DNA from: an uncultured Chloroflexia bacterium
GTDB lineage: Bacteria; Chloroflexota; Limnocylindria; Limnocylindrales; CSP1-4
DNA: 64,000 nt
Direction: 5' to 3'
Assembly (NCBI GenBank): GCA_963794525.1
Contig: CAWCEC010000003.1
Coordinates: forward strand, 124,003 to 188,002
Below the pieces are notes generated by a model that had not been told where the DNA came from, ran no database searches, and saw only the letters and a program-made list of their open reading frames with translations. A program made the translations under genes and the position numbers. Below, in pieces: positions 15,051 to 49,230 of this stretch. Every line of letters begins with the position of its first letter. Position 1 is the first letter of the stretch.

Positions 15051-15120
15051 CACCGCAAGACTAGTCGTCGCGAGCGGCGGCGGGGCTCTGCCACCTTCGC
15101 TACGCCATATCCTTCTGGTC

Positions 15121-16322: not shown

Positions 16323-16330
16323 AGGTCACC

Positions 16331-16840
16331 TTGGGAGCCTTGGAACCGCGCGTCGGCGTGGCCGAACTGCCTGTCGACTCGGCGCACGGCATCGTCAGCA
16401 TCGGCCGCGAGACGTTCCCGGAGTTCGACCACTTCGAGCAGCTCGGCGTGCATGTCCAGTCGGATCGAGTGCGACAGGCGAGCCCGGATCCTGTCTACGT
16501 CGAGACGGCGTTGACCGCGCTGCGCCAGGCGGCTCGTGAGCTCGGTGTGCCCGAGGTCGATGTCGTCTTCGTCGACACGGTCGTCGCGCCGCCGGCGTTC
16601 GGGCTGCGCTACGGCTTCAAGGGCGCGTACACCACCGACCACCCGACCCTGATCTGGGTATTCGCCAACTGGACGTCGCTGGACGAGCTCGCCGTCACCG
16701 TCCGCCACGAGGCTGCCCACCTGGCGTTCGCACGCACACACACGGCCGAGGAGTCCGCTGGACATGTCGGACCCTCGGAGGATTTCGCCCTGGCGTTCGA
16801 GCATGCGCCGCCGACTGAGGACGACGCCGCACCGCCATAA
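16331..16840 (+). CDS. hypothetical protein with an HExxH motif (putative small zinc metallopeptidase)
   Basis: TTG start at 16331 with AGAGG 5 nt upstream (alternative GTG at 16358). HEAAH motif in VTVRHEAAHLAF. Confidence 0.4.
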   Translation: MGALEPRVGVAELPVDSAHGIVSIGRETFPEFDHFEQLGVHVQSDRVRQASPDPVYVETALTALRQAARELGVPEVDVVFVDTVVAPPAFGLRYGFKGAYTTDHPTLIWVFANWTSLDELAVTVRHEAAHLAFARTHTAEESAGHVGPSEDFALAFEHAPPTEDDAAPP

Positions 16841-33482: not shown

Positions 33483-33505
33483 TCGCTTGACGTTGACGAA
33501 TGTGT

Positions 33506-33522
33506 TGATAGCATTGCTATCA
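33506..33522. promoter_or_regulatory. perfect 8-1-8 palindrome TGATAGCA-T-TGCTATCA ending 3 nt before the vapB ATG, in an AT-rich promoter-like stretch; candidate VapB autoregulatory operator
   Basis: Inverted repeat read directly from the sequence; position is typical of toxin-antitoxin autoregulation. Confidence 0.5.
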
Positions 33523-33524
33523 CC

Positions 33525-33773
33525 ATGTCAGAGACCGTCAGCAAGCGCCAGCTCATCGTCCGTGACATCCCATCGGAGGTGGTTGCGGCGCTGAAACGAC
33601 GCGCGTTGCGACACGGTCGGTCTGCTGAAGCCGAGCACCGGGTGATCCTGCGAGAGGCGCTCGAGTCGGACATACAGGGAGCATCGTTCAAGGCCGCCCT
33701 CGCTTCCATGCCCGATGTCGGCCGTGATGATGACTTCTTGGTGGATCGCGATCTCCCACGCTCGATGCCGTGA
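33525..33773 (+). CDS. vapB: type II antitoxin, VapB/FitA-like
   Basis: 82 aa. N-terminal IVRDIPSEVVAALKRRALRHGRSAEAEHRVILREAL is a FitA-like DNA-binding fold. Overlaps the PIN toxin gene by 4 bp. Confidence 0.7.
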   Translation: MSETVSKRQLIVRDIPSEVVAALKRRALRHGRSAEAEHRVILREALESDIQGASFKAALASMPDVGRDDDFLVDRDLPRSMP

Positions 33774-34192
33774 GCTGGCTGATCGATACGAACGTGCTCT
33801 CCGAACTCCGAAAGGGAGAGCGCGCTGACGAGGGGACCCGGGCGTGGTTCGCGACGACCGACGACGAGGACCTGTACACGAGCGTGCTGGTGCTCGGAGA
33901 GATCCGTCGGGGGATCGAGTCGATACGTCGACGCGACGCGGCCTCGGCGTTGGCTCTGGAACACTGGCTCGTACGCGTGGCGACTGGGTTCGGGGAGCGG
34001 ATCCTTCCGGTCGACGTCCGCGTAGCCGACCGCTGGGGCGCGCTCAACGTGCCGAACACCGTCCCCACCGTGGACGGTCTACTGGCGGCAACGGCCCTCG
34101 TCCACGATCTCGTGTTGGTGACGCGGAACATCCGCGATGTGGCCGCCACCGGTGTCGAGGTGCTCGACCCCTCGGACGGTCCGAGCGCGTGA
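33770..34192 (+). CDS. vapC: type II toxin, PIN-domain ribonuclease VapC/FitB-like
   Basis: PIN acidic residues in WLIDTNVLSE, LGEIRRGI and LVTRNIRDV. Confidence 0.85.
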   Translation: MSWLIDTNVLSELRKGERADEGTRAWFATTDDEDLYTSVLVLGEIRRGIESIRRRDAASALALEHWLVRVATGFGERILPVDVRVADRWGALNVPNTVPTVDGLLAATALVHDLVLVTRNIRDVAATGVEVLDPSDGPSA

Positions 34193-34262: not shown

Positions 34263-37088
34263 GTGCCGACACTGACCCACGAACAGATCCGGACGCTGGC
34301 GCCCGATGCGGCTGCTGCGCGCTCGGGTGAGGCGCTCGCCGATCGTCGTCGATGGGATTCGGCGGGCCGATCCGATGTGGCCGCCTGGGGCCTCTGCAAG
34401 GGCAGCGGCGCCAACCCGTACCAGGTGGCCGTCGACATCGCCGGTCCGGCCTACAAATGCTCGTGCCCATCTCGCAAGATCCCCTGCAAACACGCGCTGG
34501 GCCTGCTGTTCCTCGTCGCCGACGGCGGTGCCCCGACCGCCGATCCGCCTGACTGGGCACAGGCCTGGCTGGACAGCCGGGCCAGTCGGGCTGCCGCCGC
34601 CGCGACCCGGGCAGAACGGCCGACCGAGATCGACCCCGAAGCGCGCGCCAAACGGATCGCGACACGCGAACGGAAGGTCGCGGCTGGGATCGACGAGCTC
34701 GACCGGTGGCTGCGTGACCTGATGCGGCGCGGCCTGGATAGCACCCGGGGGGAGGGCTATCGCTTCTGGGACGCGATGGGCGCCCGGCTCGTGGACGCGC
34801 AGGCGGGCGGACTGGGACGGTCGGTGCGCGGCCTTGGATCCGCCGCCAACTCGGGCGATGCCTGGCCACATCTGCTGCTCGAGGGCGCCGGGCGCCTGCA
34901 TCTCCTTTCGGAGGCGTATCGACGCGCGGATCAACTCCCCGATGACCTCCGGGCAGACGTGCGCGCGCTGGTCGGCTGGAACGTGAAGGAGGATGAGCTC
35001 GACCCCGCCGATGCCGTCGAGGACAGGTGGCTGGTCATCGGGCAGCGCATCGATGACCGCGGCGACATCGTGACCGCCAGGACGTTCCTTCTCGGGCAGA
35101 CGTCGGGACGGATCGCGCTCCACCTCGCCTTTGGCGTCGGGGCCGCGCCGCCGACGCTCCTGGCCATCCCCGGCCAGGCGTTTCGGGCGACCCTGACCTT
35201 CTATCCGTCATCCACGCCGCTGCGGGCTGCCGTCCGACCACCGATCGAACCCGATGGCGACATCACCGGCGTTCCGGGCGCCCTGCCGCTCGCCAAGGTC
35301 GTCGACGAACACGCCGCCCGCCTCGCACGCAACCCGTTCACCGGGTCCTGGCCGGTCGTGATCGGCGAGGTCGTGCCGGTGCTAGTTGGCGATCGGCTGC
35401 TCGTGCGCGATGTCGACGGGACGGCCCTTCCGCTCCTGACCCCCGACGTCGCGCCGCGCCTCTTCGCCGTGTCGGGAGGCCACGCGGTCACCCTCGTTGC
35501 CGAGTGGGACGGCAACTGGCTTCGTCCCCTCGCGGCACACGCCGATGGACACCTCGCGTCCGTCACGACTGACGGGGAGGGCCTCGAAGCGAAGGTCGAC
35601 GACCCCGAATGGTCGGCGCTCGTCTCGGCGGCCCTCCTGGGAACGGAGCGAACCGGAGGGAGCGCCCCGATTCCAGCGACCGTGGCCGGTCTGGTCGCGG
35701 GTGCCGATACGGAGCAGGCGATCCTTGTCGCGGCCGGGTCGATGGCCGTCCGGCGGCGCGCAGGTCGAACCACGACGCTTGACGAGACGCCGAGCCCGCA
35801 ACCGGCCGAACCCGACCCGCGCCCGCAGCTCACGGGCGCGGCCGCAAGATACGTCGCCCTCGCCTTCGACGAACGACCGTCGTTGGCGCCCGAGCTCCTC
35901 GACCTCGTGCGTGCGACCGGTCGTCGCCTGCCTGACGAATGGCTCCCGAACCTCATGATGCTCGCCAGGCGGAGCGACGACGCCGCGGCCTATGTCGAGC
36001 TCGGTGGGACGCGAGCGGCCTGGCTCGCTCGGACCTTTTCGGAGCTTGCCGGGGATGTGTGGTGGGGGACGGGGGAGGACTGGGACGAAGCCTGGGCGGC
36101 AACAGAGACCGGGGCAGCCAAGGCTGCGGTGGTTCGCCGCACTCGTCGGTCGGACCTGCCTCGCGCCCGAGCGGCGCTGGCGACGTGGTGGGCATCGATC
36201 CCTTCTCCCGAGCGGGCGCGTGTGCTCGAAGCGGTCGAAGTGGGCATCGAACCGGCGGACGAACCGTTCCTCACTGATGCACTCACCGATCGACGGGCCG
36301 ACGTGCGCACGACCGCAGCTGGTCTCCTCGTGCTACTCCCGGATTCTGCGCTGACCCGTCGCATCGAGGACGAAGCGAAGCCACTCCTCGCGGCCGGCGG
36401 CCTGGTCCGCAAGAGTCTCAAGGTCACCCTGCCGTCGCCGTCGGAGGAGCTCGCGGCGATGGGGTTCGCCGGCCGACCCGAGGCTGGCTACGGCGAGCGC
36501 GCCTGGCTCCTGCGCTCGCTCCTCGCCCATGTCCGCCCGGGACGATGGAACGAGTGGCTCCGGGTCGATCCGCCGGGCCTCGTCGACCAGGCGTCACGAT
36601 CAGACGAAGCTCGCCCCCTGCTCGAGGGCTGGATCGTGGCAACAGCCCGCTTCGGCGATCCTGCTTGGGCGACGGCCATCCTCAGCAACCCGGCCGTTCC
36701 GAGCAAGGTCTTGACCGACATTGGTCATGTGCTGGACGGTCTGTCGTCGAGGGATCGCGACGCCACGGTGGCCGCCTCCGCCGCTGCCCTGCATCCTCCG
36801 GTGCTCGCAGCGCTCGCCGCGTCGATCCCGGCTCCCTGGCCGACGCCGCTCGCCGACGCGGTGCTCGATGTCGCCGAGCTGGTCGGTCGAGAGCAATTCC
36901 CGGGACCCGGCCTGTACGAGCTCGTACGCGCCGCCGCACTCCGCCTGCAGCCCGACCGAGTGGACGACCTGACCAAGGTTGCGTCATACAAGGACGAGCT
37001 CCGTCCGGCGCTCACCGACGTGGTCGAGACCATCCGTCTTCGCGCCCGCGTCCACGAAGCCTTCGCGTCCGTGACACCGCCAGCCTGA
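34263..37088 (+). CDS. SWIM zinc-finger family protein (large; DUF5691-like C-terminal region)
   Basis: SWIM CxCx(n)CxH signature YKCSCPSRKIPCKHALGLLF near the N-terminus. 941 aa. First gene of the SWIM / MoxR / DUF5682 / VWA operon. Confidence 0.75.
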   Translation: MPTLTHEQIRTLAPDAAAARSGEALADRRRWDSAGRSDVAAWGLCKGSGANPYQVAVDIAGPAYKCSCPSRKIPCKHALGLLFLVADGGAPTADPPDWAQAWLDSRASRAAAAATRAERPTEIDPEARAKRIATRERKVAAGIDELDRWLRDLMRRGLDSTRGEGYRFWDAMGARLVDAQAGGLGRSVRGLGSAANSGDAWPHLLLEGAGRLHLLSEAYRRADQLPDDLRADVRALVGWNVKEDELDPADAVEDRWLVIGQRIDDRGDIVTARTFLLGQTSGRIALHLAFGVGAAPPTLLAIPGQAFRATLTFYPSSTPLRAAVRPPIEPDGDITGVPGALPLAKVVDEHAARLARNPFTGSWPVVIGEVVPVLVGDRLLVRDVDGTALPLLTPDVAPRLFAVSGGHAVTLVAEWDGNWLRPLAAHADGHLASVTTDGEGLEAKVDDPEWSALVSAALLGTERTGGSAPIPATVAGLVAGADTEQAILVAAGSMAVRRRAGRTTTLDETPSPQPAEPDPRPQLTGAAARYVALAFDERPSLAPELLDLVRATGRRLPDEWLPNLMMLARRSDDAAAYVELGGTRAAWLARTFSELAGDVWWGTGEDWDEAWAATETGAAKAAVVRRTRRSDLPRARAALATWWASIPSPERARVLEAVEVGIEPADEPFLTDALTDRRADVRTTAAGLLVLLPDSALTRRIEDEAKPLLAAGGLVRKSLKVTLPSPSEELAAMGFAGRPEAGYGERAWLLRSLLAHVRPGRWNEWLRVDPPGLVDQASRSDEARPLLEGWIVATARFGDPAWATAILSNPAVPSKVLTDIGHVLDGLSSRDRDATVAASAAALHPPVLAALAASIPAPWPTPLADAVLDVAELVGREQFPGPGLYELVRAAALRLQPDRVDDLTKVASYKDELRPALTDVVETIRLRARVHEAFASVTPPA

Positions 37089-38197
37089 TGGGAGACCCGA
37101 TGACCGCGACACCGCCAGCCGTCCTGCGCGCCCACGCCGAGCAGGCCAGGGCCGACGAACTCGAGGCCCTCGCCCGTCTCGACGAGAAGCAGCGCCCGCC
37201 CGGGTGGCGTCTCTCGCCCTGGGCGGTCGTGACGTTCGTCATGGGCGGCAAGCTCAAAGACGGCACCAACGTCACGCCCAAATACATCGGGGACCGACGT
37301 CTGGTGGAGATCGCCGTGGCCACGCTCGCCACGGACCGCGCCTTGCTCCTCCTCGGCGTGCCCGGAACCGCCAAGAGCTGGCTGTCCGAACACCTGGCCG
37401 CCGCGATCAGCGGCGACTCGACGCTGCTCGTGCAGGGGACCGCCGGCACGGGCGAGGAGGCGATCCGCTTCGGCTGGAACTACGCGCGGCTTCTGGCCGA
37501 TGGCCCATCGCGGGCCGCTCTCGTCCCAAGCCCGGTGATGGTCGGCATGGCCGCGGGCAAACAGGTGCGCATCGAGGAGCTGACCAGGATCCCCGCGGAC
37601 GTCCAGGACGCCCTGATCACGATCCTGTCCGAGAAGTCCCTGCCGATCGCTGAGCTCGGCGAGGAGGTCCAGGCGGTCAATGGCTTCAATGTGATCGCCA
37701 CCGCGAACAACCGCGACAGAGGCGTCAACGAGCTCTCGTCCGCGCTACGACGGCGCTTCAACACCGTGGTGCTGCCGCTGCCGGCGTCGGTCGAGCAGGA
37801 GGTCGAGATCGTCCAGCAGCGGGTGGGGGAGATGGGTCGCGCGCTCGATCTCCCTGCCGAGCCGCCGGCGCTCGAGGAGATCCGCCGAATCGTCACGATC
37901 TTCCGCGAGCTTCGCTCGGGTCAGACGGAGGACGGCAAGAACAAGCTCAAGGTCCCGTCGGCGACGCTGTCGACAGCCGAGGCGATCGCGGTCGTCAACC
38001 AGGGTCTCTCGCTGGCGGCGCATTTCGGCGAGGGACGGCTCAAGCCACGCGACGTCGCCGCTGGCCTGACGGGCGCGATCATCCGCGATCCAGTCCAGGA
38101 CGCAGCCGTGTGGCGCGAGTACCTCGAGACCGTGATGAAGGAACGTGACGGCGGCTGGCGCGAGCTGTACAAGGCCTGCCGCGAGGAAGCCGAATAG
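37088..38197 (+). CDS. MoxR-like AAA+ ATPase
   Basis: Walker A GVPGTAKS, Walker B region and arginine finger context (IATANNRD, ALRRRF). The start overlaps the SWIM gene stop (TGATG). Confidence 0.85.
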   Translation: MGDPMTATPPAVLRAHAEQARADELEALARLDEKQRPPGWRLSPWAVVTFVMGGKLKDGTNVTPKYIGDRRLVEIAVATLATDRALLLLGVPGTAKSWLSEHLAAAISGDSTLLVQGTAGTGEEAIRFGWNYARLLADGPSRAALVPSPVMVGMAAGKQVRIEELTRIPADVQDALITILSEKSLPIAELGEEVQAVNGFNVIATANNRDRGVNELSSALRRRFNTVVLPLPASVEQEVEIVQQRVGEMGRALDLPAEPPALEEIRRIVTIFRELRSGQTEDGKNKLKVPSATLSTAEAIAVVNQGLSLAAHFGEGRLKPRDVAAGLTGAIIRDPVQDAAVWREYLETVMKERDGGWRELYKACREEAE

Positions 38198-38213
38198 GCG
38201 CGGCGGCGCAACC

Positions 38214-40502
38214 GTGACCACGATCCTCGGCATCCGCCACCACGGCCCGGGTTCGGCGCGGAGCGTGCTGGCCGAGCTCGAGCGGCTGCAACCGGACGCC
38301 CTGCTCGTCGAGGGACCGTCGGACGCGTCCGGCCTGATCGACCTGATCGCGGATCCGGGGATGCGGCCACCCGTCGCGCTCCTCATCTACGCGCCCGACG
38401 AACCGCGCGTCGCGACGTTCTACCCGATGGCCGAGTTCAGTCCGGAATGGGTGGCCCTGCGCTGGGCGCTGGAGCATGGCATCCCGGCACGGTTCATCGA
38501 TCTCGCCGCTGGCGCCCAGTTCGCCGTTGAGAAGGCCAGGTTCCAGCAACGGATGGCCGAGGCCGCGAAGGCCGCCGAAGCGACCGACGCCGACGACGGC
38601 GGGGCAGGGGAGGGAGAGGACGCCCCCGACACCCCGGACACCCCGGACGCCGAGGAGATCCGCCACGACCCACTCAACGAGCTCGCCCAAGCCGCTGGTG
38701 AGGAGGATGGAGAACGCTTCTGGGATCGCCTCGTCGAGTCGCGACGCGAACCCGGCGACCTGTTCGCCGCCGTCTCCGAAGCGATGACCGCCGTGCGCGA
38801 CGCACTGCCGGAAGGAGAGAGCCTGACCCTCCAGCGCGAGGCCGCGATGCGACGCGGCATCCGGCAAGCCGCCAAGGACGGCTTCGAAAACGTCGCCGTC
38901 GTATGCGGGGCGTGGCACGCGCCCGCCCTCGAGAAGCTGCCGCCCGCCGCCCAGGACGACCGGATCCTCCGCGCCCTGCCCAAGGCCATGAAGACCGCGG
39001 CGGCCTGGGTGCCCTGGACGTTCGACCGGTTGGCCGCCGAGTCGGGCTACGGCGCCGGTGTCGAGTCGCCGGGCTGGTACGCCCACCTGTGGTCGGGTAC
39101 GGAACCGCTCGCCGTCTCGTGGATGGCCAAAGTCGCCGCGCTCTTCCGCGAGGAGGGCCTCGATGCCTCCGCGGCGCACCTGGTCGAAGCCGTCCGCCTC
39201 GCCGAGACCCTCGCCGCGATGCGCGGCCGGGCCGTGCCGTCCCTGTCCGAGCTCAACGAGGCCGTGCGCGCGTGCCTCGCCATGGGTTCCGACCTGCCGC
39301 TCAAGCTCGTGCGCGACCGCCTGATCGTGGGCCAGGTCATGGGCGAGACACCGCCCGACGCCCCGGTGGCACCGCTCGCCGCCGACCTCGAGCAGCTGAC
39401 CCGCCGACTCCGCATGCGGCCGGAGCCCGGTGAGAAGACCATCGACCTGGACCTCCGGTCGGACACCGATCGCGCGCGGAGCCACCTCCTGCATCGACTC
39501 GGGATCCTCGGCGTCCACTGGGGCCATACGCAGGAGGTCCGCGGCAAGAGCGGCACGTTCCACGAGGTCTGGGCGCTCGCCTGGCAGCCCGAGTTCGTGA
39601 TCGACCTGGTCGCGGCCAGCCGCTTCGGCAACACGATCGAGGAAGCGGCGTCGAACTCGTCGATCGAAGCCGCCAACGCCGCCGACGAGCTGCCCGCGCT
39701 GACCTCGCTGATCGAGGCGGTGCTCCTCGCCGAGCTTCCGAAGGCGATCGAGCTCGTCGTCGACCGGATCGGCGATGTGGCGGCGGTCGGTGCGGACGTG
39801 CCCGCCCTCATGGACGCCCTCCCGCCGCTTGCCCGGGTCCTGCGCTACGGCAACGTCCGGGGCACGGACGCGACTGCCGTGTCCACGGTCGTCGACGGGC
39901 TCGTCGCCCGCGTCTGCATCGGGCTCTCGAGCGCGGCCGCCTCGCTCGACGACGATGCGGCCGCGACCTTCGCAAGCCAGATCGACGGGGTCCACGGCGC
40001 CATCGCCCTGCTCGACGATGCCGACGACCGAGCAGCCTGGCGCGAGTCCTTGCTTCGCCTGATCGACCAGGAGGGCCTCCATGGCCTTGTCGCCGGACGG
40101 GCGACCCGCCTCCTCCTCGACGAAGGCGTCATCGACAGCGCCGACGCGGCTCGCCGGATGCGCCTCGCCCTCTCGCCTGGCGCGGATCCGGCCGTCGGCG
40201 CGGGCTGGGTCGAAGGCTTCCTCCGTGACAGCGGCACGATCCTGCTCCACGACCAGGACCTGTTCGACACCATCGACCGCTGGGTCACGGATATGCCCCA
40301 GGACGCCTTCGACAACGTGCTGCCGCTGCTGCGCCGGACGATCGCGACCTTCAGCGTCCCGGAGCGGAGGTCGATCGGTGAGCGGATCCTGGCCGGTCGA
40401 CGCGATCGCGCCGCGGCGGCGTCGGCCGGGATAGACGAGGAACGGGCCGATCTCGTCATGCCGATCCTCGCCCGGATCCTGGGCGTCGAGGAGCGGCGAT
40501 GA
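38214..40502 (+). CDS. DUF5682-family protein (partner of MoxR/VWA; function unknown)
   Basis: GTG start after the AAA stop. About 760 aa with no recognised catalytic motif. Confidence 0.6.
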   Translation: MTTILGIRHHGPGSARSVLAELERLQPDALLVEGPSDASGLIDLIADPGMRPPVALLIYAPDEPRVATFYPMAEFSPEWVALRWALEHGIPARFIDLAAGAQFAVEKARFQQRMAEAAKAAEATDADDGGAGEGEDAPDTPDTPDAEEIRHDPLNELAQAAGEEDGERFWDRLVESRREPGDLFAAVSEAMTAVRDALPEGESLTLQREAAMRRGIRQAAKDGFENVAVVCGAWHAPALEKLPPAAQDDRILRALPKAMKTAAAWVPWTFDRLAAESGYGAGVESPGWYAHLWSGTEPLAVSWMAKVAALFREEGLDASAAHLVEAVRLAETLAAMRGRAVPSLSELNEAVRACLAMGSDLPLKLVRDRLIVGQVMGETPPDAPVAPLAADLEQLTRRLRMRPEPGEKTIDLDLRSDTDRARSHLLHRLGILGVHWGHTQEVRGKSGTFHEVWALAWQPEFVIDLVAASRFGNTIEEAASNSSIEAANAADELPALTSLIEAVLLAELPKAIELVVDRIGDVAAVGADVPALMDALPPLARVLRYGNVRGTDATAVSTVVDGLVARVCIGLSSAAASLDDDAAATFASQIDGVHGAIALLDDADDRAAWRESLLRLIDQEGLHGLVAGRATRLLLDEGVIDSADAARRMRLALSPGADPAVGAGWVEGFLRDSGTILLHDQDLFDTIDRWVTDMPQDAFDNVLPLLRRTIATFSVPERRSIGERILAGRRDRAAAASAGIDEERADLVMPILARILGVEERR

Positions 40503-41647
40503 GCGACGAACGGCTGCGACGCTGGCGCCTGGCGCTCGGCGGTGGGGACGCTGATGGGACCGGCCTCGCCCTGGCGGGGGACGACCTGAAGCGCGACCAG
40601 GCCCTCGAGCGGCTGTACGACGCGGAGCGGACCGCCGGCATGGGCGCATCGTCGCCCCAGGTCGTCCGCTGGCTCGGCGACATCCGGACGTATTTCCCAT
40701 CGTCGGTCGTGTCGGTGATGCAGCAGGACGCGCTCGAGCGGCTGAACCTGCGCCGGATGCTCCTGGAGCCAGAACTGCTGGCGACGATCCAGCCGGACCT
40801 CAACCTCGCCACCGAGCTGATCGCGTTGGGCTCGGTGATGCCCGCCGAGACACGGACCACGGCGCGGGAGATCGTCCGCGAGGTCGTCGAGGACGTCATG
40901 CGCCGGCTGGAGAGCCCGCTGCGCCAGGCCATCAGCGGTGCCCTCAACCGGGCGGCGGTCACCCGACGCCCGCGCCAGCGCGACATCGACTGGGACCGCA
41001 CGATCCGACGGAACCTGCGTCACTACCAGCCGGACCTCAAGACGGTCATCCCCGAGACGTTGCTGGGACACGCCCGTCGATCGAACGCCCTGCGCGACGT
41101 CGTGATCGCGGTCGACCAGTCGGGCTCGATGGCTGCCTCGGTCGTGTACTCGTCTGTGTTCGCCGCCGTCATGGCGTCCATCCGCTCGGTGGAGACGAAG
41201 CTCATCGTCTTCGACACCTCGGTCGTCGACCTGACCGACGTGCTGGACGATCCGGTCGAGGTCCTGTTCTCGACCCAACTCGGCGGCGGCACCGACATCA
41301 ACCGCGCGGTGGGCTACTGCCAGACCCTCGTCGCCCGACCGACGGATACGATCTTCGTGCTCATCAGCGACCTGTTCGAGGGCGGCGTCGAGCGGGAGCT
41401 GATCGCCCGGGTCTCGCAATTGCTGGCCTCGGGCGTGACCGTGATCGTGCTGCTGGCGCTGTCGGACAAGGGCACGCCGTCGTTCGACCACGAGCTCGCG
41501 GCGAAGCTGGCTGCCCTCGGTGCCCCCGCATTCGCCTGCACGCCGGACCACTTCCCGGGTCTCATGGCCGCCGCCATCGAGAAACGCGACGTCGGCCGCT
41601 GGGCAGCAGAGCAGGGGATCGCGCTGGAGCGCCCGAAGGACACGTGA
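40499..41647 (+). CDS. VWA-domain protein (MoxR partner)
   Basis: MIDAS motif VVIAVDQSGSM in a C-terminal VWA fold. Overlaps the DUF5682 gene by 4 bp. Confidence 0.8.
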   Translation: MSDERLRRWRLALGGGDADGTGLALAGDDLKRDQALERLYDAERTAGMGASSPQVVRWLGDIRTYFPSSVVSVMQQDALERLNLRRMLLEPELLATIQPDLNLATELIALGSVMPAETRTTAREIVREVVEDVMRRLESPLRQAISGALNRAAVTRRPRQRDIDWDRTIRRNLRHYQPDLKTVIPETLLGHARRSNALRDVVIAVDQSGSMAASVVYSSVFAAVMASIRSVETKLIVFDTSVVDLTDVLDDPVEVLFSTQLGGGTDINRAVGYCQTLVARPTDTIFVLISDLFEGGVERELIARVSQLLASGVTVIVLLALSDKGTPSFDHELAAKLAALGAPAFACTPDHFPGLMAAAIEKRDVGRWAAEQGIALERPKDT

Positions 41648-42391: not shown

Positions 42392-42504
42392 TCGGCTGAA
42401 TCGACGCGGCTGCCTTCCTAGCCGATTGACATCAGTGTCACGATGAAGGCGTTGCGGTCGCTGTCCAGCGTTCACGGCCCGTCGGCCGAACGAGGGTGTT
42501 GGTC

Positions 42505-43002
42505 ATGAGACAGTTCAGAGTCCGCGATCTGATGATCAACGTGCTGCCCGAGGGCGGGCTGCCGCCGATCTGCAGGGTGGTCACCCTGCTGGACTGCGCA
42601 AACGACACCGAGATGGTGGCTGATTGTGGGATCAGCCTCTGCCGACCTATCAGTCGGTGCGTGCAGGTCACACTCCTGGCGGCCTGCGACGCCGACGGCG
42701 GCTCGAGCTGTGACGCCTGCGTCACCAAGGGCACCGTCACCACGGGCGGATGCAAGCCAGGCACGGGCGGCAAGATCGCCGCCGACGTGGGGCAGTACCT
42801 CGATGAGCTGGCGATCCTCAAGGCGGAGCTCACGGCGACGTTGAGCCGGGTCGAGGCGCGGGAGCGGGTGGTCGAAGAGAGCTTGGGGCCGCAGAGTCTG
42901 GACGAGGTTCAGCAACTCGAAGAGAGGCTCACCGGGGCGCTGGAGGAGTTGCGCGCGCGCCGAACCGAGATCGAGCGGACGACGCCCAAGTCGGCCGAGT
43001 AA
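42505..43002 (+). CDS. Cys-rich small protein with a C-terminal coiled coil (hypothetical)
   Basis: GAGGG 9 nt before the ATG. 10 Cys in residues 23-85 (CRVVTLLDCANDTEMVADCGISLCRPISRCVQVTLLAACDADGGSSCDACVTKGTVTTGGC), then a heptad-like helix. Confidence 0.5.
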   Translation: MRQFRVRDLMINVLPEGGLPPICRVVTLLDCANDTEMVADCGISLCRPISRCVQVTLLAACDADGGSSCDACVTKGTVTTGGCKPGTGGKIAADVGQYLDELAILKAELTATLSRVEARERVVEESLGPQSLDEVQQLEERLTGALEELRARRTEIERTTPKSAE

Positions 43003-43014
43003 TCGGCGCGTCGT

Positions 43015-44226
43015 TTGGCCGCCGGGACCAACGCGCCGCGAGGAGATCCGGACGACCTCCTCGAGGCGACCTATCGCGCTAACCCACGGTACGCGCTCGT
43101 CCAGTTCGACCGTCTTCCGCCCGCCGAACAGGCGGCCCTTTCTGGCCTCGAGCTGGACCCAGACTTCTATGGAGTCCTCGTGTCTCGGGGACAAACAAAC
43201 CAAGGCGTGAAAGCGGTGGGCAGGGATGCAGCCCTGCTGTTTCTCACGTTGGAAACGCCCGGGAAGCTTCCCAGGTATGTGCGGCGCCAGTTCGGGGACA
43301 ACTACCGGCAAGCGATCGCGGAGCTAGTGCTCGACGGCCTTCTCGAGATCGAGGCGGATGGGGCGTTCGTTTCCGGCCCCGCGGCGCATCGACGCATCAT
43401 CGGGGACGGCGAGGCGGCAGCAGGCGGGATCCTCGCCCGCCGGTCGATCGAGGCGCTCGAGTACGCCCAGGCCCTCGAAATCACGGACAGCCGCACGCTC
43501 TCTGCGCGCATCTACGGCTACGGGCGACATCCCTTGTCACCGCAGCTCCATCGGGATTTCCCGACGCCCGCGGCCGTCTCCGAGTATCTGGGTGTCCATG
43601 CGAGGGATGCCACCGGAGCGATTCTGGCCAAGTCGTGGTTCGCGGTACCGTCTTCTCAACCGGGTGATATGTGGCTCGCGTGGAACTCGCGCTCCATACG
43701 CCGCAGGCCGTCGGCGTCCGAGCCCACCTACAAGCTCTACGTCAGCCCACAACCCGAGTCCATGCGAGATGCATTCCAGACGACGGTCCAGGTCATCTCC
43801 AAGATGGCCGCCCCGTCGTTCAAGGTGGGTGGGGATGTGTACGGGCTGCTGCGGCCGGACAAGCTCGTCATCTATTTCGAGAACGTTGACGACCTCCAGC
43901 GAGCATCGAGTGCGCTGACCGACCGCCTCCACGGTTGTCTCCCACATGGCGTTCCGTTCACTGCAGAGATCGCCGGCGATGGCCTGTTGTCGTGGGGGAT
44001 CGACCCCCCACGAGACCTGTCGATGCCGGGGTGGCAACAATCGGGGAGCTGGCGCATCTGGGTCACGAATTGGCTGGCCGTTGCGCTGCTCTCGGCGAAG
44101 GCCGCTGCCACGGACGCGGTCGAGCCGTGGATGTTCGCACTAGATCGTCTTCGATTGGATGGCGTTGACACGACATCATGGATCCCGACGCCGACGATCT
44201 GGCGTGACGCCGTTTCGAGCGGCTAA
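43015..44226 (+). CDS. hypothetical 403-aa protein, candidate partner of the downstream kinase-LanC protein
   Basis: Long ORF with coding GC3 and tight spacing to both neighbours. No confidently recognised domain from sequence alone. Confidence 0.55.
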   Translation: MAAGTNAPRGDPDDLLEATYRANPRYALVQFDRLPPAEQAALSGLELDPDFYGVLVSRGQTNQGVKAVGRDAALLFLTLETPGKLPRYVRRQFGDNYRQAIAELVLDGLLEIEADGAFVSGPAAHRRIIGDGEAAAGGILARRSIEALEYAQALEITDSRTLSARIYGYGRHPLSPQLHRDFPTPAAVSEYLGVHARDATGAILAKSWFAVPSSQPGDMWLAWNSRSIRRRPSASEPTYKLYVSPQPESMRDAFQTTVQVISKMAAPSFKVGGDVYGLLRPDKLVIYFENVDDLQRASSALTDRLHGCLPHGVPFTAEIAGDGLLSWGIDPPRDLSMPGWQQSGSWRIWVTNWLAVALLSAKAAATDAVEPWMFALDRLRLDGVDTTSWIPTPTIWRDAVSSG

Positions 44227-46630
44227 GTTGAACGACCCTGCCATCACTGCGCCGTTGCTCCTGCCGACGGACGTCGTCCTGACGCCGGTTGCCGAGCTAC
44301 CCGAGAGACTCCGAGAGCACTTGGAACACGTGGACGGGGACTACGCGATCGCTCGGCGCCGGTCGAGGGCCCCGACGAGGATCGTCAATTCGCACGCGGC
44401 GAAGCTCCTCGACCAGTTTCGAACGGCGACCACCATCGTCCAGGCCGTCATCAATTTCGGGCTGGCAACCGGCGAGGATCCCGCGGAGGTCCTTGACGCC
44501 TCTTATCCGATGCTCAAGCGCCTGCTGGACTCGAATGTTCTCGTTCCCGCGGAGTCCGACGCAGCTGGCGAGATCATTCAGTCGTACGCCGTTGGCGAAC
44601 GCATCGCCGGGTTCACGGTCCTGCGCTGCCTGCACGTCCTCGAAGACACGGAGCTCTACCAGGTCAGGGGCCCGAACGGTCAAGAGGTCGCGCTCAAGAT
44701 CTCGCGGTCTGATCCCTCGGCCGATCTGCGGCGCATGTTCGGGCGGGAGGCCTCCGTCCTTCGCCACCTGGAGGGCAGCGTCAGCCCCGGATTCCTTCAA
44801 GAGGGCCCATTCGAAGATCGGCTGTTCCTCGCGATGGGGTGGTGCGCCGGGGTGCCGGCGAACACCGTCGCCGCAGAGGTTCGCGAGGTGGGCCGCGGCG
44901 ATGGGCCACGACAACTCCTCGACCTCGGTTGCACGATCCTGGAACAGTACGCCCGTCTCCATGCGCGGAACGTCATCCACTCGGACGTTCACCAGTCGAA
45001 CCTGCTCATCGCCGCCGACGGATCGATCAAGATCATCGACTTCGGCCTGGCGCGCCTGCCTGACGCAAGCGAGCCCTTGGACCACGCTCACCGCGGCGGT
45101 GTCGGCTTCTACTTCGAGCCCGAGTGTGCCTCCGCCTTGCGCGCCGGCCGCCAGCCCCCGGAATCCAGCTTCCTCGGCGAGCAATATGCACTCGCCGCGA
45201 TGCTGTATTTCCAGTTCACAGGCGTGCATCAGCTCGACTACTCGCTCGAGCGGGACGAGATGCTTCGCCAGATCTCCGAAGATCCGATGCTGCCGTTCTC
45301 GAAACGCGGAGTCAGCGCCTGGCCCGATGTCGAGCGGATCCTCGCGAGGGCGCTGAGCAAGGAACCACAGGCGCGCTTTCCCTCCGTTGCCGATTTCGCC
45401 CGGGCGCTCCGCGGCGTCGAGGTCACGGGCGACCAGGGCGTCGCCGCCGGGCGCGGCCGGACTCCGACCAAGGGCATGTCGCCGGCTGCAGAGGATGTCC
45501 TACGTGATGTGCTTGACCGTGTCCAGATTTCCGGTCCGCTGCAGCAGACCGGGCTCGCCAGGCCGACTGCCTCGGTCAACTATGGTGCGGCCGGCATCGC
45601 ATACGCGCTGTACCGCATCGCCCGCGTCCGGGGCGATCCCGCGCTCCTCGCCCTCTCGGACGTCTGGGCGAGCCGGTCGACTCGCGACCTCGACGATGAG
45701 GCCGCGTTCGTCAATACCGACCTTCAGATCGTCCCGGAGGTCGTTGGTGCGATCTCGCCGTACCACACCGCGAGCGGTGTCCATTGCGTCCAGGCACTCA
45801 TCGCTCATGCCATGGGCGATGCGGCCGCCCAGCAGGGAGAGATCGAGCACTTCATCGCGGCATCGGCAGCGCCGTGTCCGGACCTCGACCTTACCTTGGG
45901 CCGGTCGTCCTCGCTGCTGGCCGCGTCGCTGTTGAGGGACACGGCCCCCGACAACGACAAGCTACTTGGGTTCGGCAACGCGCGTTTGGCGGGCATCTGG
46001 GAGGAGGTCGGTGTATTCCCGCCGATCCGAGAATTCGCCGATATCTCCTACCTCGGGATCGCCCACGGATGGGCGGGGATCCTGTACGCGACGATGCGGT
46101 GGGCCGAGGCGTCAGGCATGCCGATGCCCACCTCGCTCCGTGAGCGCCTCGATCAGCTGGCCGAGCTCGCCGAGCACAAGGGCCGTGGCATTCGCTGGCC
46201 GGTGTACACCGAGACTCGATCGCACAAGCTCGAGCCGTACATGGCCGGCTGGTGTCACGGCAGCGCCGGCTACGTCCATCTCTGGATGCTTGCACACCGG
46301 GCGTTCAAGGACGAGAGGTACCTCGGCCTAGCCGAAAGCGCCGCCTGGAACGCGTGGGAGGAGCCCGACGCGAACGGCAGCCTCTGTTGTGGCCTGGCCG
46401 GGCGGGCGTATGCGCTGTTGAACCTCCATCGAGCCACGGGTGGGTCCGAATGGCTAGGCCGTGCCCGCCATCTCGCGAACAAGGCGGCCGGCGGCATCAG
46501 GAGTCGGGACGTGCCGGTGAATAGCCTGTACAAGGGCGAGGTGGGCATCGCTGTCTTGGCCGCCGACCTCTCGAAACCCGAATGGTCTTCGATGCCCTTC
46601 TTCGAAGCTGAGGGCTGGTCGACGACCTAA
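44159..46630 (+). CDS. Ser/Thr protein kinase fused to a C-terminal LanC-like (lanthionine synthetase C-like) cyclase domain
   Basis: Kinase motifs VALKI, HSDVHQSNLLI and IIDFGLAR. LanC motifs GIAHGWAGILYA, GWCHGSAGY and SLCCGLAGRAYAL. Start uncertain: the ATG at 44159 overlaps the upstream gene by 68 nt; alternatives are GTG 44204 and TTG 44228. Confidence 0.8.
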   Translation: MALTRHHGSRRRRSGVTPFRAAKLNDPAITAPLLLPTDVVLTPVAELPERLREHLEHVDGDYAIARRRSRAPTRIVNSHAAKLLDQFRTATTIVQAVINFGLATGEDPAEVLDASYPMLKRLLDSNVLVPAESDAAGEIIQSYAVGERIAGFTVLRCLHVLEDTELYQVRGPNGQEVALKISRSDPSADLRRMFGREASVLRHLEGSVSPGFLQEGPFEDRLFLAMGWCAGVPANTVAAEVREVGRGDGPRQLLDLGCTILEQYARLHARNVIHSDVHQSNLLIAADGSIKIIDFGLARLPDASEPLDHAHRGGVGFYFEPECASALRAGRQPPESSFLGEQYALAAMLYFQFTGVHQLDYSLERDEMLRQISEDPMLPFSKRGVSAWPDVERILARALSKEPQARFPSVADFARALRGVEVTGDQGVAAGRGRTPTKGMSPAAEDVLRDVLDRVQISGPLQQTGLARPTASVNYGAAGIAYALYRIARVRGDPALLALSDVWASRSTRDLDDEAAFVNTDLQIVPEVVGAISPYHTASGVHCVQALIAHAMGDAAAQQGEIEHFIAASAAPCPDLDLTLGRSSSLLAASLLRDTAPDNDKLLGFGNARLAGIWEEVGVFPPIREFADISYLGIAHGWAGILYATMRWAEASGMPMPTSLRERLDQLAELAEHKGRGIRWPVYTETRSHKLEPYMAGWCHGSAGYVHLWMLAHRAFKDERYLGLAESAAWNAWEEPDANGSLCCGLAGRAYALLNLHRATGGSEWLGRARHLANKAAGGIRSRDVPVNSLYKGEVGIAVLAADLSKPEWSSMPFFEAEGWSTT

Positions 46631-46720: not shown

Positions 46721-46755
46721 CTCAACAGCCCTCGGCGGCGGCCGGCGGGATCTCG
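46721..46755 (+). repeat. right direct repeat, overlapping the stop and last codons of the lipoprotein gene 46722-47423; right boundary of the kinase-LanC cassette
   Basis: CTCAACAGCCCTCGGCGGCGGCCGGCGGGATCTCG versus CTCAACAGTCCTCGGCAGCGGCCGGCGGGATCTCG. Confidence 0.55.
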
Positions 46756-47423
46756 GCGAGTGGATCGCCGATCACGATGCTGATCACGTCGCAGTCGGCG
46801 ATCACGACGGCACGGGCGTCGGCGACCGGCTCGCCGTTGACCTGCGCCGCGACGGGCTTGTCAGGCGCGCAGAGATCGGCGAAGCACGTTCCGTCGAGCT
46901 TGACGCCCCAAGAGTCGGCGAACTGCCCGAGCGTCAGCTCGATCGGTTCCTCCGCCTCGAGGTGGACCGTGCCCGAGCAGTCGTGCGTGTGGAGTCCGGC
47001 GATGCGGTGCCCATCGTTGTCGATGCCGATCCCCGCGGGGACGATCTGGGGTTCGCCGTCGACGAACACGCCCACGTACGTATGCACGTGGTGACTGAGC
47101 CACTCCACCGGGTCGACGGGTACGCCGGCGGTTGCGGCGAGGTCGACCGTATCGTTTGCGACCGGCCATCGCGCATACGCGCATTCCTCGCTGAAGAACT
47201 GGTCGGGCGCCGAGAAGACCCGGCCATCCGCGGTCTTGTATGTGCCGTCCGGCTGCTGGACCGCGTCCGCGAGCTCCGGTGGTAGACCCGCGGCAGTCGA
47301 GGGCGCTGCCTGGCTGGGACTGGGCGGCGTCGAGGCAGTGGTGCCGGTCCCGCACGCGATCGAGCCCAACGCGAGGACGAGTGCGGCGCCGACGACGAGG
47401 ACGCGCGACCGAAGAACCCTCAT
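46722..47423 (-). CDS. lipoprotein with His/Cys-rich motifs (possible metal binding)
   Basis: ATG at 47423 preceded by GGAGGG. Signal and lipobox LVLALGSIACG; motifs HHVHTY and HTHDC. Its last 35 nt are duplicated at 42357-42391. Confidence 0.6.
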   Translation of the reverse strand: MRVLRSRVLVVGAALVLALGSIACGTGTTASTPPSPSQAAPSTAAGLPPELADAVQQPDGTYKTADGRVFSAPDQFFSEECAYARWPVANDTVDLAATAGVPVDPVEWLSHHVHTYVGVFVDGEPQIVPAGIGIDNDGHRIAGLHTHDCSGTVHLEAEEPIELTLGQFADSWGVKLDGTCFADLCAPDKPVAAQVNGEPVADARAVVIADCDVISIVIGDPLAEIPPAAAEGC

Positions 47424-47464
47424 GCCACCCTCCGAAGACGAGTCGACCGCCATCCTAGCCGGCC

Positions 47465-48126: not shown

Positions 48127-49230
48127 ATGCGCAGTCCGATCAACTTGCGGATCGCCAGCGTGAGCGTGGGGGCGGTCCTGGCTATGGGGCTCGTCATCAC
48201 GAGCACGGCGGGAGTCGATGCCAAACCACCCAAGCCCACGCCGAAGCCGACGCCGACGGCGACATCGACGCCCACGCCGCCCTCTGTCTCGGCCACGGTC
48301 GAGATCGCCCCGACCGGAACGCTGGAGCCGAGTCGCCAATACAGCAACGTGGATGTGACGGTCACGTGTCCGACAGGCTGGACGTGGGTCCGTGGCGGCC
48401 TCTACGTGCGGCAGGCAGATCCCGGGGGCGCCGGCAGCTTCAGCGCTTCGTGCACAGACTCGCCGCAGATCGTGCGCGTCAGGGTCGTGAACGGGAACAA
48501 ATGGACGCTCGGCAACGCGACCGCACAGGCCTTCGTCACCATCGCGCGGAGCGGCCGTGAAACACAGGTCAGCAGCACGCGCACGATCAGCCTGCAGCCC
48601 GGCGTCACCGCGCGGATCGCGGACCAAGGCCAGCTGACGGGTACCGGAGGCGGCGGCGTGAAGATCGCGGTCGCCGCGGCCTGCCCGACCGGAGCGACGG
48701 GCCAGCCATCGTCCATCTCGGTATCCCAGGGCGGCACGGCGCAAGGCTCCGGGACCTTCACGCCGCTGTGCGATGGCACGTCGCGCACGTTCGTCGTGTC
48801 GATCGGGACGTCCACGGGACCGTTCCACACGGGGAGCGCGACGAGTGCGGCATCCGCCACGGTCGCGTGGAATGGCCAGAGCTTCGACGGGACCGATAGC
48901 CGCGGGATCACGCTGCTCGAGTCCTCGACGGGTGACACGACACCGCCGACCCCACCCAACGGCCTCAGTGCGAACGTCTTCGGAGACGGCGAGACGTGGC
49001 TGTCCTGGGGTGCGTCGACCGACAATGCCACGCCGACAGGCCTGATCGTGTACGAGGTCTTCCTGAACGGTCGATTCGACCAGGGGACCGGCGGCGGCTA
49101 CACCCAGGCGATCCTCTATGCCGATCTCGGAGTCATGAACACGATCGAGGTCGTTGCCGTCGACGGCGCGGGAAACCGGTCAGCGCCAGCATCCGTGACG
49201 GTCGACTGCACCTCCGGTGGCTGCCAGTGA
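48127..49230 (+). CDS. secreted protein with a Pro/Thr-rich linker and a C-terminal fibronectin-III-like domain
   Basis: Signal peptide, a KPPKPTPKPTPTATSTPTPP linker and an FN3-like tail (PPTPPNGLSANVFGDGETWLSWGAST...YEVFLNG). Confidence 0.6.
   Translation: MRSPINLRIASVSVGAVLAMGLVITSTAGVDAKPPKPTPKPTPTATSTPTPPSVSATVEIAPTGTLEPSRQYSNVDVTVTCPTGWTWVRGGLYVRQADPGGAGSFSASCTDSPQIVRVRVVNGNKWTLGNATAQAFVTIARSGRETQVSSTRTISLQPGVTARIADQGQLTGTGGGGVKIAVAAACPTGATGQPSSISVSQGGTAQGSGTFTPLCDGTSRTFVVSIGTSTGPFHTGSATSAASATVAWNGQSFDGTDSRGITLLESSTGDTTPPTPPNGLSANVFGDGETWLSWGASTDNATPTGLIVYEVFLNGRFDQGTGGGYTQAILYADLGVMNTIEVVAVDGAGNRSAPASVTVDCTSGGCQ

Follow-up and report, generated by a model that had tools for sequence, protein, structure and literature searches.

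A conserved YehL-type MoxR–VWA cassette with a predicted TIKI/TraB-type hydrolase domain in its DUF5682 protein

Results

Four co-directional genes and an adjoining vapBC pair

The window analyzed here, a 64,000-nucleotide stretch from the genome of an uncultured Chloroflexia bacterium, holds four co-directional ORFs on the forward strand that encode a SWIM+DUF5691 protein (G1), an AAA_5/MoxR ATPase (G2), a DUF5682 protein (G3) and a VWA_CoxE protein (G4) (Table 1). The ORFs lie where the sequence-only reading of this DNA had placed a four-gene operon, and Pfam confirmed the SWIM, MoxR AAA+, DUF5682 and VWA domains with E-values that are far beyond chance. The DUF5682 protein is there as claimed, at a length of 762 aa rather than 760 aa. 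The overlaps of 1–4 nt between successive genes stood in part. G3 and G4 overlap by 4 nt and have an ATGA in common, which is the sole certain overlap in the cassette, and G1 and G2 overlap by 1 nt only if G2 begins at ATG 37088. A GGGAG Shine-Dalgarno-like motif precedes the second candidate, ATG 37100. In a 90%-identical relative (locus L083) the AAA gene encodes 365 aa and is separated from the preceding gene by an 11-nt gap; ATG 37100 is likely the true start of G2. Between G2 and G3 there is no overlap, as a gap of 16 nt precedes the G3 start at GTG 38214, and every homologue has an N-terminus that agrees with this start. Were GTG 38145 used instead, G3 would overlap G2 by 53 nt.

The RHH and PIN genes of the vapBC pair, reported earlier as adjoining the cassette, were also confirmed. 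The two genes overlap by 4 nt, as a type II VapBC pair, and lie upstream of the cassette.

Table 1. Features of the cassette and of the adjoining vapBC pair (window coordinates)
Feature	Position	Strand	Supporting match
Promoter-like site of vapBC	33487-33514		
vapB antitoxin, FitA-like RHH	33525-33773	+	Pfam FitA-like_RHH, E=9.5e-15
vapC toxin, PIN	33770-34192	+	Pfam PIN, E=3.3e-13
G1, fused SWIM zinc-finger/DUF5691 protein, 941 aa	34263-37088	+	Pfam SWIM, E=1.2e-5; DUF5691, E=3.9e-86
SWIM zinc finger of G1, C66-x-C68-x6-C75-x-H77	34449-34511	+	Pfam SWIM, residues 63-83
DUF5691 region of G1, HEAT-like helical repeat	35619-37064	+	Pfam DUF5691, residues 453-934
G2, YehL-type MoxR AAA+ ATPase, 369 or 365 aa	37088 or 37100-38197	+	AAA_5, E=2.3e-34
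G3, DUF5682/YehM-like protein, 762 aa	38214-40502	+	Pfam DUF5682, full length, E=3.9e-262
Predicted TIKI/TraB/ChaN/erythromycin-esterase-fold hydrolase domain of G3, residues ~1-270	38214-39023	+	
G4, CoxE-type VWA protein, YehP-like, intact MIDAS, 382 aa	40499-41647	+	VWA_CoxE, E=1.2e-52, residues 140-353

The window copy is a fused-gene member of a widespread family

The usual form of the cassette, across 80 species of at least 12 phyla, is a run of five genes that encode SWIM, DUF5691, AAA_5, DUF5682 and CoxE-type VWA proteins. This order (S-S-A-M-V) was found in about 50 of the 80 loci, in Chloroflexota, Cyanobacteria, Acidobacteriota, Deinococcota, Proteobacteria, Planctomycetota, Verrucomicrobiota, Bacteroidota, Actinomycetota, Clostridia and Desulfovibrionales. 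At least 589 GTDB species representatives carry it, and DUF5682 homologues number at least 7,979. The claim that MoxR-AAA+ and VWA-MIDAS genes form a conserved, tightly coupled operon together with genes for two large partners is borne out. The SWIM and DUF5691 genes are separate in 52 of 58 loci, so that G1 corresponds in most genomes to two proteins, of about 450 aa (SWIM) and 500 aa (DUF5691); in Streptomyces the two genes are divergently transcribed, and the cassette of five Chitinophagaceae carries an extra DUF4132/HEAT gene. The sequence-only reading did not recognize the 941-aa protein as a fusion of two usually separate genes. The same fusion, with the same families in the same order, is found in Actinoplanes friuliensis (CP006272, locus L002). 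The window cassette does not differ in kind from the five-gene cassettes that many bacterial genomes carry annotated by DUF names only, and the window copy is an ordinary family member in its fused-gene form, not a special case.

Three of the proteins are homologues of E. coli YehL, YehM and YehP

E. coli has only two MoxR ATPases, and one of them, YehL, gives its name to one of the seven MoxR subfamilies (PMC3893208). G2 is 42% identical to YehL over the full length (E=1e-76), G4 is 35% identical to YehP (E=2e-73), and G3 is 29% identical to YehM over about 500 aa (E=5e-37) with all motifs in common. As these three proteins are clear homologues of YehL, YehM and YehP, the window cassette probably belongs to the YehL subfamily of MoxR systems. 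The sequence-only reading had recognized neither the kinship with E. coli yehLMP nor this subfamily. In the yehL-yehM-yehP-yehQ operon of E. coli K-12 the AAA_5, DUF5682 and CoxE-type VWA homologues keep the A-M-V order of the window, and each operon includes a SWIM-finger protein. The SWIM proteins themselves differ. YehQ (614 aa) is encoded last in the operon, whereas G1 is encoded first, and the two have no detectable similarity beyond the CxC...CxH finger. The E. coli operon also has no DUF5691 gene; upstream of it are instead the WGR and DUF4132 genes yehF, yehH and yehI. A SWIM+DUF5691-type cassette from a Citrobacter freundii MAG (locus L063) gave no megablast match in 5,426 E. coli genomes. 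The yehLMPQ operon is present in 5353 of the 5426 complete genomes (98.7%), single-copy and chromosomal, and this homologue of the cassette is part of the E. coli core genome.

Intact ATPase and metal-site motifs in G2 and G4

The Walker A motif GxxGxxK[ST], Walker B residues E163-E164 (E-E, as opposed to the usual D-E), N207 and R222-R223 of G2 are invariant in all 73 homologues, 70 of which carry Walker A as GxxGxAK[ST]. The solved sequences closest to G2 are the AAA ring of midasin (3e-13) and NorQ (8e-5). The models for NorQ, GvpN and MadB score far below the YehL match, and by these scores G2 is probably closest to YehL. A nearby VWA partner, as looked for in a YehL-subfamily member, is encoded by the VWA_CoxE gene two genes downstream. 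The MIDAS residues of this protein are conserved in its 69 homologues: D206-x-S208-x-S210 and D291 do not vary in any of them, and T265 is kept in 68.

Midasin/Rea1, CbbQ-CbbO, NorQ-NorD and BchI-BchD-BchH likewise pair an AAA_5-class ATPase with a MIDAS VWA module that grips a partner, as the window proteins may do. These machines have other partners, and no client enzyme is linked to the cassette; the likeness is one of mechanistic analogy and not of membership.

A predicted TIKI/TraB-type hydrolase domain in G3 and an adaptor-like G1

The sequence-only reading had suggested a search for nuclease, protease or effector folds in the two large proteins. A predicted fold of this kind was found in the DUF5682 protein and none in the SWIM protein. 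In the AF2 model of G3 (pLDDT 82.1, pTM 0.71), a TIKI/TraB/EreA-like domain at the N-terminus is followed by an alpha/beta region and then by a helical repeat at the C-terminus. Residues ~1-270 are modelled as an alpha/beta fold built on a parallel sheet, like that of TraB, ChaN and Ere, a predicted likeness to the TIKI/TraB/PrgY/GumN/ChaN/erythromycin-esterase superfamily, whose members include E. coli YbaP, RRSP and EreC. The Pfam TraB, Ere and ChaN families gave no match to this domain at E<=10. An hhalign comparison gave E=0.01 with a score 5.7 sd above column-shuffled controls, and none of the 60 shuffles reached that score.

The motif that defines the TIKI/TraB type comprises two His, two Glu and an Arg, with paired GxxH (PMC6254334). 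The candidate catalytic residues of G3, G6-x-x-H9(H10), E33, R208(E209) and G232-x-x-H235, align with GSIH, VEAD, QRN and GALH of YbaP/TraB, so that the paired GxxH, the strand-end Glu and the helix Arg stand in the same order in both; for the second Glu the counterpart is uncertain. G6xxH9, E33, R208 (with E209) and G232xxH235 are invariant in 82 of 82 homologues, a count that is free of search-pattern bias for H9, E33 and R208, while the conservation of the FSPEW and VVCGxWH peptides is partly circular, both having served as search patterns. The protease/esterase active site of DUF5682 thus appears to be intact. A point of difference from the superfamily is that the domain is embedded in a protein of some 760 aa with a large helical-repeat C-terminus. 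We know of no TIKI-family member described in an operon with an AAA+/VWA pair.

In G1, the SWIM finger passes the Pfam cut-off (25.2 versus 19.6 bits), and its ligands C66, C68, C75 and H77 conform to the CxCxnCxH pattern and are invariant in 59 of 59 homologues. The DUF5691 region is predicted to be all-helical. Fold matches of the SWIM-DUF5691 protein were to adaptor or solenoid folds only, including the substrate receptor ZSWIM8. No paper in the literature searched mentions DUF5682 or DUF5691, in keeping with the earlier statement that this SWIM/DUF5682 variant has no known experimental function.

Genomic context and alternative functions

The genes that flank the cassette are not conserved. 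The largest cluster of flanking genes covers only 8 of the 80 loci, at scattered positions, and the commonest Pfam family among 133 immediate neighbours accounts for three of them. These neighbours come from home-made gene calls in about 75 species, and the counts hold for that sample and are not a genome-wide statistic. As no flanking gene is conserved, the partners of the cassette must lie within it. A consistent linkage to a housekeeping client, which had been regarded at the outset as telling against a defence role, was not found, and the 80 loci have no consistent linkage to anything.

These observations bear on whether the cassette might be a chelatase-type chaperone for cofactor or metal insertion, with the AAA+ protein as the "I", the VWA protein as the "D" and a large protein as the "H/CobN-like" subunit. 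The ChaN-like domain of DUF5682 would then bind a tetrapyrrole or metal without hydrolysis, and the client would be encoded elsewhere. Known maturases usually sit beside their client, yet in none of the 80 loci does the cassette have a client-enzyme or cofactor-biosynthesis gene linked to it. The His/Glu/Arg hydrolase constellation is, moreover, invariant, which is not expected of a mere ligand-binding module. We consider the chelatase-type function unlikely.

An anti-phage or conflict system was also considered, with the SWIM/HEAT proteins as sensors of an invader, a threshold set by the MoxR-VWA pair and the DUF5682 hydrolase as the toxic effector of abortive infection. The NTPase switch, the vWA protein, the large third component and the enzymatic domain recall how the ternary MoxR-vWA conflict systems are built to work (Kaur et al. 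2020, PMC7159879). The window cassette shares with them its MoxR-type ATPase, a CoxE-like N-terminal helical domain on the vWA protein and one or more large additional components. The cassette is not among the systems described there, however, and that paper makes no mention of SWIM, YehL or TraB. The bpMoxR match is sub-threshold (22.9 versus 27 bits), no VMAP, iSTAND or beta-propeller component was found by Pfam in the window cassette, its vWA protein has no effector-associated domains, and there is no defence or polymorphic-toxin context; the link drawn earlier to these systems is one of analogy only. The variable genomic context, the vapBC pair beside the window cassette and the wide phylum spread at 42-50% identity (among the matches listed), which fits some horizontal transfer, are in line with a conflict system, as is the silencing of yehL and yehM by H-NS in E. 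coli, as for many horizontally acquired loci (PMC3686432). Yet vapBC is absent beside the cassette of the 90%-identical relative and is not a recurrent neighbour in the 80 loci; it is an incidental neighbour, outside the system. The other neighbours in the window are transport, metabolic and sigma-factor genes. Among the 133 immediate neighbours of the sample of about 75 species, no PADLOC family had more than two matches, so that neither the survey for defence-gene enrichment nor the supposed defence-island company of the cassette came out in favour of defence. PADLOC-DB 2.0 models of no family matched G1, G3 or G4, and G2 had two marginal generic AAA matches only (E about 0.002-0.009). The family was found in one of 50,697 phage records, one of 2.9 million viral contigs and 28 of 72,556 plasmid records, the last being mostly chromids or mislabelled chromosomes. 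Phages, viral contigs and true plasmids all but lack it. The core-genome status of yehLMPQ points in the same direction. A defence role for the cassette is unsupported, and we regard it as rather improbable.

A nucleic-acid- or RNP-directed disassembly machine, a kind of "split midasin", strikes us as a long shot. Here DNA, RNA or an RNP would be bound by the SWIM finger and the beta domains, which are possibly OB-like, and a factor would be removed from it by the AAA_5/MIDAS pair.

Discussion

The reading that we prefer is that of a self-contained machine in which AAA+/MIDAS remodelling controls a TIKI-type hydrolase carried by a SWIM/HEAT scaffold, the window cassette being its Chloroflexota version, chromosomally inherited and built around a YehL-subfamily MoxR ATPase. 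We hold this joint explanation with evenly balanced confidence. The AAA_5 ATPase would form an ATP-burning ring, coupled through the VWA protein, whose MIDAS would grip an acidic residue on a partner by analogy with CbbQ/CbbO, NorQ/NorD, the Mg-chelatase I/D subunits and midasin. The dedicated partners of this pair would be those encoded in the same operon, and the cassette proteins may form one complex. The catalytic output, that of a peptidase or esterase, is likely to come from DUF5682, because it has a predicted TIKI/TraB/erythromycin-esterase-type domain with an invariant GxxH...E...R...GxxH site, and it may be an active hydrolase. Not every protein of this fold is a hydrolase, as ChaN binds haem and PMT is devoid of the catalytic residues, and this tells against the reading, as does the E-E form of Walker B in G2. 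The SWIM-DUF5691 protein would be a scaffold of zinc finger, beta-domain and HEAT-like repeats that most plausibly selects or holds the putative target of the machine. ATP-driven remodelling may switch the hydrolase on and off or feed substrate to it, and in either case the ATPase would gate DUF5682.

More tentatively, the YehL-type cassettes, yehLMPQ included, may constitute a new class of ATP-gated hydrolytic machines in which a MoxR ring and a MIDAS adaptor control the TIKI/TraB-family DUF5682/YehM protein, a generalization we put forward as possible rather than probable. The protease or esterase could in such machines be mounted on SWIM/HEAT substrate-receptor scaffolds. A hydrolytic machine of this sort might act in stress or conflict, despite the lack of a defence-island context. 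On present evidence there is no case for counting the window copy among defence candidates.

The two large partner families so far exist as DUF numbers only. The predicted intact TIKI/TraB-type site in DUF5682/YehM makes an otherwise opaque operon testable, with an E. coli homologue that is genetically tractable. If the proposal is true, the cassette would be a bacterial complex for regulated processing that has no characterized counterpart.

The cassette as a probable member of the YehL-type MoxR–VWA family

The four-gene cassette of the window is probably a member of a known, uncharacterised family, the YehL-type MoxR–VWA systems, and represents its common SWIM+DUF5691 subtype in a fused form; this copy is ordinary within the family. 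Its kinship with the E. coli K-12 operon yehLMPQ is seen in the ATPase (G2; 42% identity with YehL, E=1e-76), the DUF5682 protein (G3; 29% with YehM, E=5e-37) and the VWA protein (G4; 35% with YehP, E=2e-73). The first protein (G1) and YehQ, the SWIM protein of E. coli, have the CxC...CxH finger as their sole common feature, and hhalign of the SWIM-DUF5691 profile against YehQ returned nothing beyond the SWIM finger. A SWIM+DUF5691-type cassette from a Citrobacter freundii MAG found no megablast match in 5,426 E. coli genomes. An equation of DUF5691 with DUF4132 was dropped, the hhalign of the SWIM-DUF5691 profile with YehI (DUF4132) being without relationship. E. coli has just two MoxR ATPases; YehL is one of them and the namesake of one of seven MoxR subfamilies (PMC3893208). 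Mutants in hns/stpA show de-repression of yehL and yehM (PMC3686432). Apart from that study, the literature searched has yehL, yehM, yehP and yehQ in gene lists only, and no mention of DUF5682, DUF5691 or their Pfam accessions was found in it. The ternary conflict systems that Kaur et al. describe, to which the sequence-only reading had linked the cassette, do not include it: SWIM, YehL and TraB are all unmentioned in that paper (PMC7159879), and the match to bpMoxR is sub-threshold.

Gene layout and anatomy of the cassette

The region 34263-41647 carries four closely coupled ORFs of the same direction, all on the + strand and each with a Pfam match. The tight overlaps of 1-4 nt that had been claimed hold in part. 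The G3 and G4 genes overlap by 4 nt, with ATGA common to both; those of G1 and G2 overlap, by one base, only with ATG 37088 as the start of G2; and G2 and G3 are separated by 16 nt with GTG 38214 as the start of G3, which agrees with the N-terminus in all homologues. A GGGAG motif lies 5' of the alternative G2 ATG at 37100, and a relative with a 90%-identical DUF5682 protein has a 365-aa ATPase that follows its upstream gene after an 11-nt gap. A scan for operon-internal promoter or terminator signals found none.

Coordinates of the cassette and of the adjacent vapBC genes in the window
Feature	Position	Strand	Remarks
vapB, RHH antitoxin	33525-33773		upstream of cassette; Pfam
vapC, PIN toxin	33770-34192		upstream of cassette; Pfam
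G1, SWIM/DUF5691	34263-37088	+	941 aa; Pfam SWIM residues 63-83, DUF5691 residues 453-934 (E=3.9e-86)
G2, AAA_5	37088 or 37100-38197	+	Pfam AAA_5, 2.3e-34
G3, DUF5682	38214-40502	+	762 aa; Pfam DUF5682 full length, 3.9e-262
G4, VWA_CoxE	40499-41647	+	382 aa; Pfam VWA_CoxE, 1.2e-52

The family is widespread. At least 7,979 DUF5682 homologues are found in the protein database, and relatives occur in at least 589 GTDB species representatives. The matches listed include Chloroflexota, Cyanobacteria, Acidobacteriota, Deinococcota, Proteobacteria, Planctomycetota, Verrucomicrobiota, Bacteroidota, Actinomycetota, Clostridia, Desulfovibrionales and Myxococcota, and the closest among them bear the names 'Ca. 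Limnocylindrales' or Chloroflexota. The six-frame ORFs of 80 loci were searched with the proteins of the window and of E. coli. The usual cassette in these loci has five genes, which encode, in this order, SWIM (~450 aa), DUF5691 (~500 aa), AAA_5, DUF5682 and VWA proteins. SWIM and DUF5691 are separate genes in 52 of the 58 loci with both halves and a single ORF in at most 6 of the 58; therefore, the 941-aa protein of the window is a fusion of both. The two are fused in Actinoplanes friuliensis as well. Three loci that at first seemed to be devoid of DUF5691 proved to have it, and in Streptomyces the first two cassette genes are divergent from the remainder. In the 90%-identical relative (L083, 6562-8875) the gene calls divide the SWIM-DUF5691 region into two genes of 277 and 508 aa; this may reflect a true split or a frameshift in the assembly. 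Upstream of a Trueperaceae cassette, phmmer with G1 detected no SWIM/DUF5691 gene; a 1,395-aa ORF there (L016, 3551-7735, - strand) has no Pfam match.

Five Chitinophagaceae (L041, L050, L051, L053 and L066) have a DUF4132/HEAT gene (~980 aa) immediately after the VWA gene, at about 13400-16400, and yehI (DUF4132 family) and the WGR/DUF4132 genes yehF and yehH lie just upstream of yehL (E. coli locus L001, 5280-8912). This suggests that the DUF4132 protein is an optional sixth partner of the cassette.

DUF5682 as a predicted TIKI/TraB-type hydrolase

The active site of the TIKI superfamily consists of two His and two Glu residues with a conserved Arg (PMC6254334). G3 has four motifs of this kind, each at the secondary-structure position that matches the superfamily: G6-I-R-H9-H10 follows strand 1, E33 sits where strand 2 ends, R208-E209 is part of a helix, and G232-A-W-H235 follows a strand. 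We aligned 82 DUF5682 N-domains against a nine-sequence TraB/GumN alignment (E. coli YbaP and plasmid homologues), and the profile–profile alignment spanned 215 columns with all four motifs in register. Its score of 26.1 (E=0.01) compares with 14.1 +/- 2.1 (maximum 21.5) in 60 column-shuffled controls, and the comparison is informative only with the nine-sequence alignment and these controls, a single YbaP sequence against the DUF5682 profile being not significant. G6, R8, H9, E33, P35, D96, R208, E209 and M212 are invariant in 82/82 homologues. For FSPEW and VVCGxWH the conservation is in part circular, as both peptides had served as search patterns. With the DUF5682 alignment as profile, a PDB search yielded no meaningful match, and the domains taken separately had no match to TraB, Ere or ChaN in Pfam at E<=10. 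In the structure search with DUF5682, unrelated helical proteins that match the C-terminal solenoid were interleaved at similar Z, and Foldseek with the full-length model returned non-significant solenoid matches only. With moderate confidence, the motifs and the profile alignment point to an intact TIKI/TraB-type hydrolase domain in DUF5682/YehM, the kind of effector fold that the sequence-only reading had proposed to look for.

A disordered insert (window 38511-38663, G3 residues ~100-150, pLDDT <50) interrupts the TIKI-like domain. Across homologues the insert ranges between 13 and 258 aa in length, and its acidity is mild (median D+E 24% versus 13% protein-wide). From this modest enrichment, a weak signal that we keep as a lead, the insert could be a MIDAS ligand or a handle for the AAA+ ring.

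The ATPase, VWA and SWIM-DUF5691 proteins

By sequence, the nearest matches of the ATPase are the midasin AAA ring (3e-13) and NorQ (8e-5). Its Walker A lysine, Walker B E-E, N207 and R222-R223 are all invariant. The Walker B of YehL-type ATPases is hydrophobic-Glu-Glu (E163-E164; 73/73) in place of the usual Asp-Glu (window 37571-37579, G2 residues 162-164). The MIDAS residues of the VWA protein are invariant, except for T265 (68 of 69 homologues), as are the SWIM ligands. The model of SWIM-DUF5691 is very confident (pLDDT 89.8, pTM 0.77). A search for an effector in this protein, also proposed earlier, yielded helical-repeat and adaptor proteins only (Enp1/bystin, IntS4, the substrate receptor ZSWIM8, HPt bundles and an OB domain), with no enzyme fold among the structural matches.

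Genomic surroundings and mobility

The vapBC module reported next to the cassette is a genuine RHH/PIN pair. It has a promoter-like site of its own (33487-33514; sigma-70-like TTGACG-16-TAGCAT), and a perfect palindrome, GATAGCAtTGCTATC, across the -10 region just 5' of vapB is probably the VapB operator. The pair is not a conserved companion of the cassette in relatives; it is absent beside the cassette of the 90%-identical relative, where the flanks are an MFS transporter and a globin gene. Its presence here is incidental to the cassette and does not bear out the defence-island company that the sequence-only reading saw in it. Other neighbours in the window encode an MFS transporter, a HAD hydrolase, acetyl-CoA synthetase, a PNPOx-like protein, a sigma-70 factor, a membrane methyltransferase, RibD_C and a kinase-LanC protein. 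The last (44159-46627; 823 aa, Ser/Thr-kinase and LanC-like domains) resembles a class III/IV lanthipeptide synthetase, and with nearby unannotated ORFs that have no Pfam match (42475-43311, 43358-43915, 46725-47453 and 48127-49227) it may form a RiPP cluster.

When 747 flanking genes from the 80 loci were clustered, the largest cluster covered 8 loci at scattered positions, and the DUF4132 gene was the sole position-specific neighbour. The 133 immediate neighbours (138 minus five DUF4132 genes) showed neither an enrichment in defence genes nor any recurrent family: each PADLOC family matched at most 2 proteins and each Pfam family at most 3, adh_short being the commonest. One or two of these neighbours matched the PADLOC MADS components mad3, mad6 and mad8, and one kinase matched many PD-T4-6 models. 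None of the four cassette proteins had a convincing PADLOC match. The Actinoplanes cassette is flanked by regulators and metabolic enzymes. Consistent housekeeping linkage, which the sequence-only reading had held against its own defence proposal, was likewise not seen, no client enzyme being linked to the cassette in the 80 loci.

Among complete E. coli genomes, 5353 of 5426 carry yehLMPQ (median one copy, at most two), and 5371 of its 5374 places are on chromosomes. Of 72,556 plasmid records, 28 contain the family, and many of these 28 are chromids or mislabelled chromosomes; the family also occurs in 1 of 50,697 phage records and in 1 of 2.9 million viral contigs. The phage record is an unannotated contig of 14 kb from human faeces, named 'Bacteriophage sp.' (MT835988.1, 10644-12755), and the viral contig is from IMG/VR (L093, IMGVR_UViG_2562617057_000009, 8001-9386). 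Their DUF5682 homologues, the only ones among the phage and viral records, are 27-29% identical; the two records may stem from mis-binned bacterial DNA or from the edge of a prophage. With no linked client or defence genes, a chromosomal place in E. coli and rarity on phages and plasmids, the cassette is therefore self-contained and chromosomal.

Discussion

The best-supported reading, which we advance with guarded confidence, is that the cassette is a self-contained AAA+/MIDAS remodelling machine with a gated hydrolase. The YehL-type ring would hydrolyse ATP, and the CoxE-type VWA protein would couple it, via MIDAS, to the operon-encoded partners in a putative complex. The catalytic output would come from DUF5682, acting as a peptidase or esterase that ATP-driven remodelling would gate or feed with substrate, and SWIM-DUF5691 may serve as scaffold or as receptor for the presumed target. 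Observed directly are the gene content, the intact motifs, the similarity in fold and the lack of links to genes outside the cassette, whereas the complex, its catalysis and gating, and the target are inferred. The CoxE-type VWA and the ChaN-like fold would also suit a chelatase-like cofactor maturase; this we consider unlikely, as no client is linked and the hydrolase residues are invariant. Less likely still is a defence system, which the architectural logic and H-NS silencing favour, but against which stand the genomic context, the core-genome status and, rare records apart, the absence from mobile elements. A midasin-like RNP remodeller, for which generic fold matches are the sole basis, is improbable.

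What is new here is the yehLMPQ link, the five-gene architecture with its fusion and the predicted hydrolase site, and the defence-island hypothesis has been given a negative result. For a system that is an orphan in E. coli and in hundreds of other species, there is thereby a concrete prediction of catalysis that can be tested.
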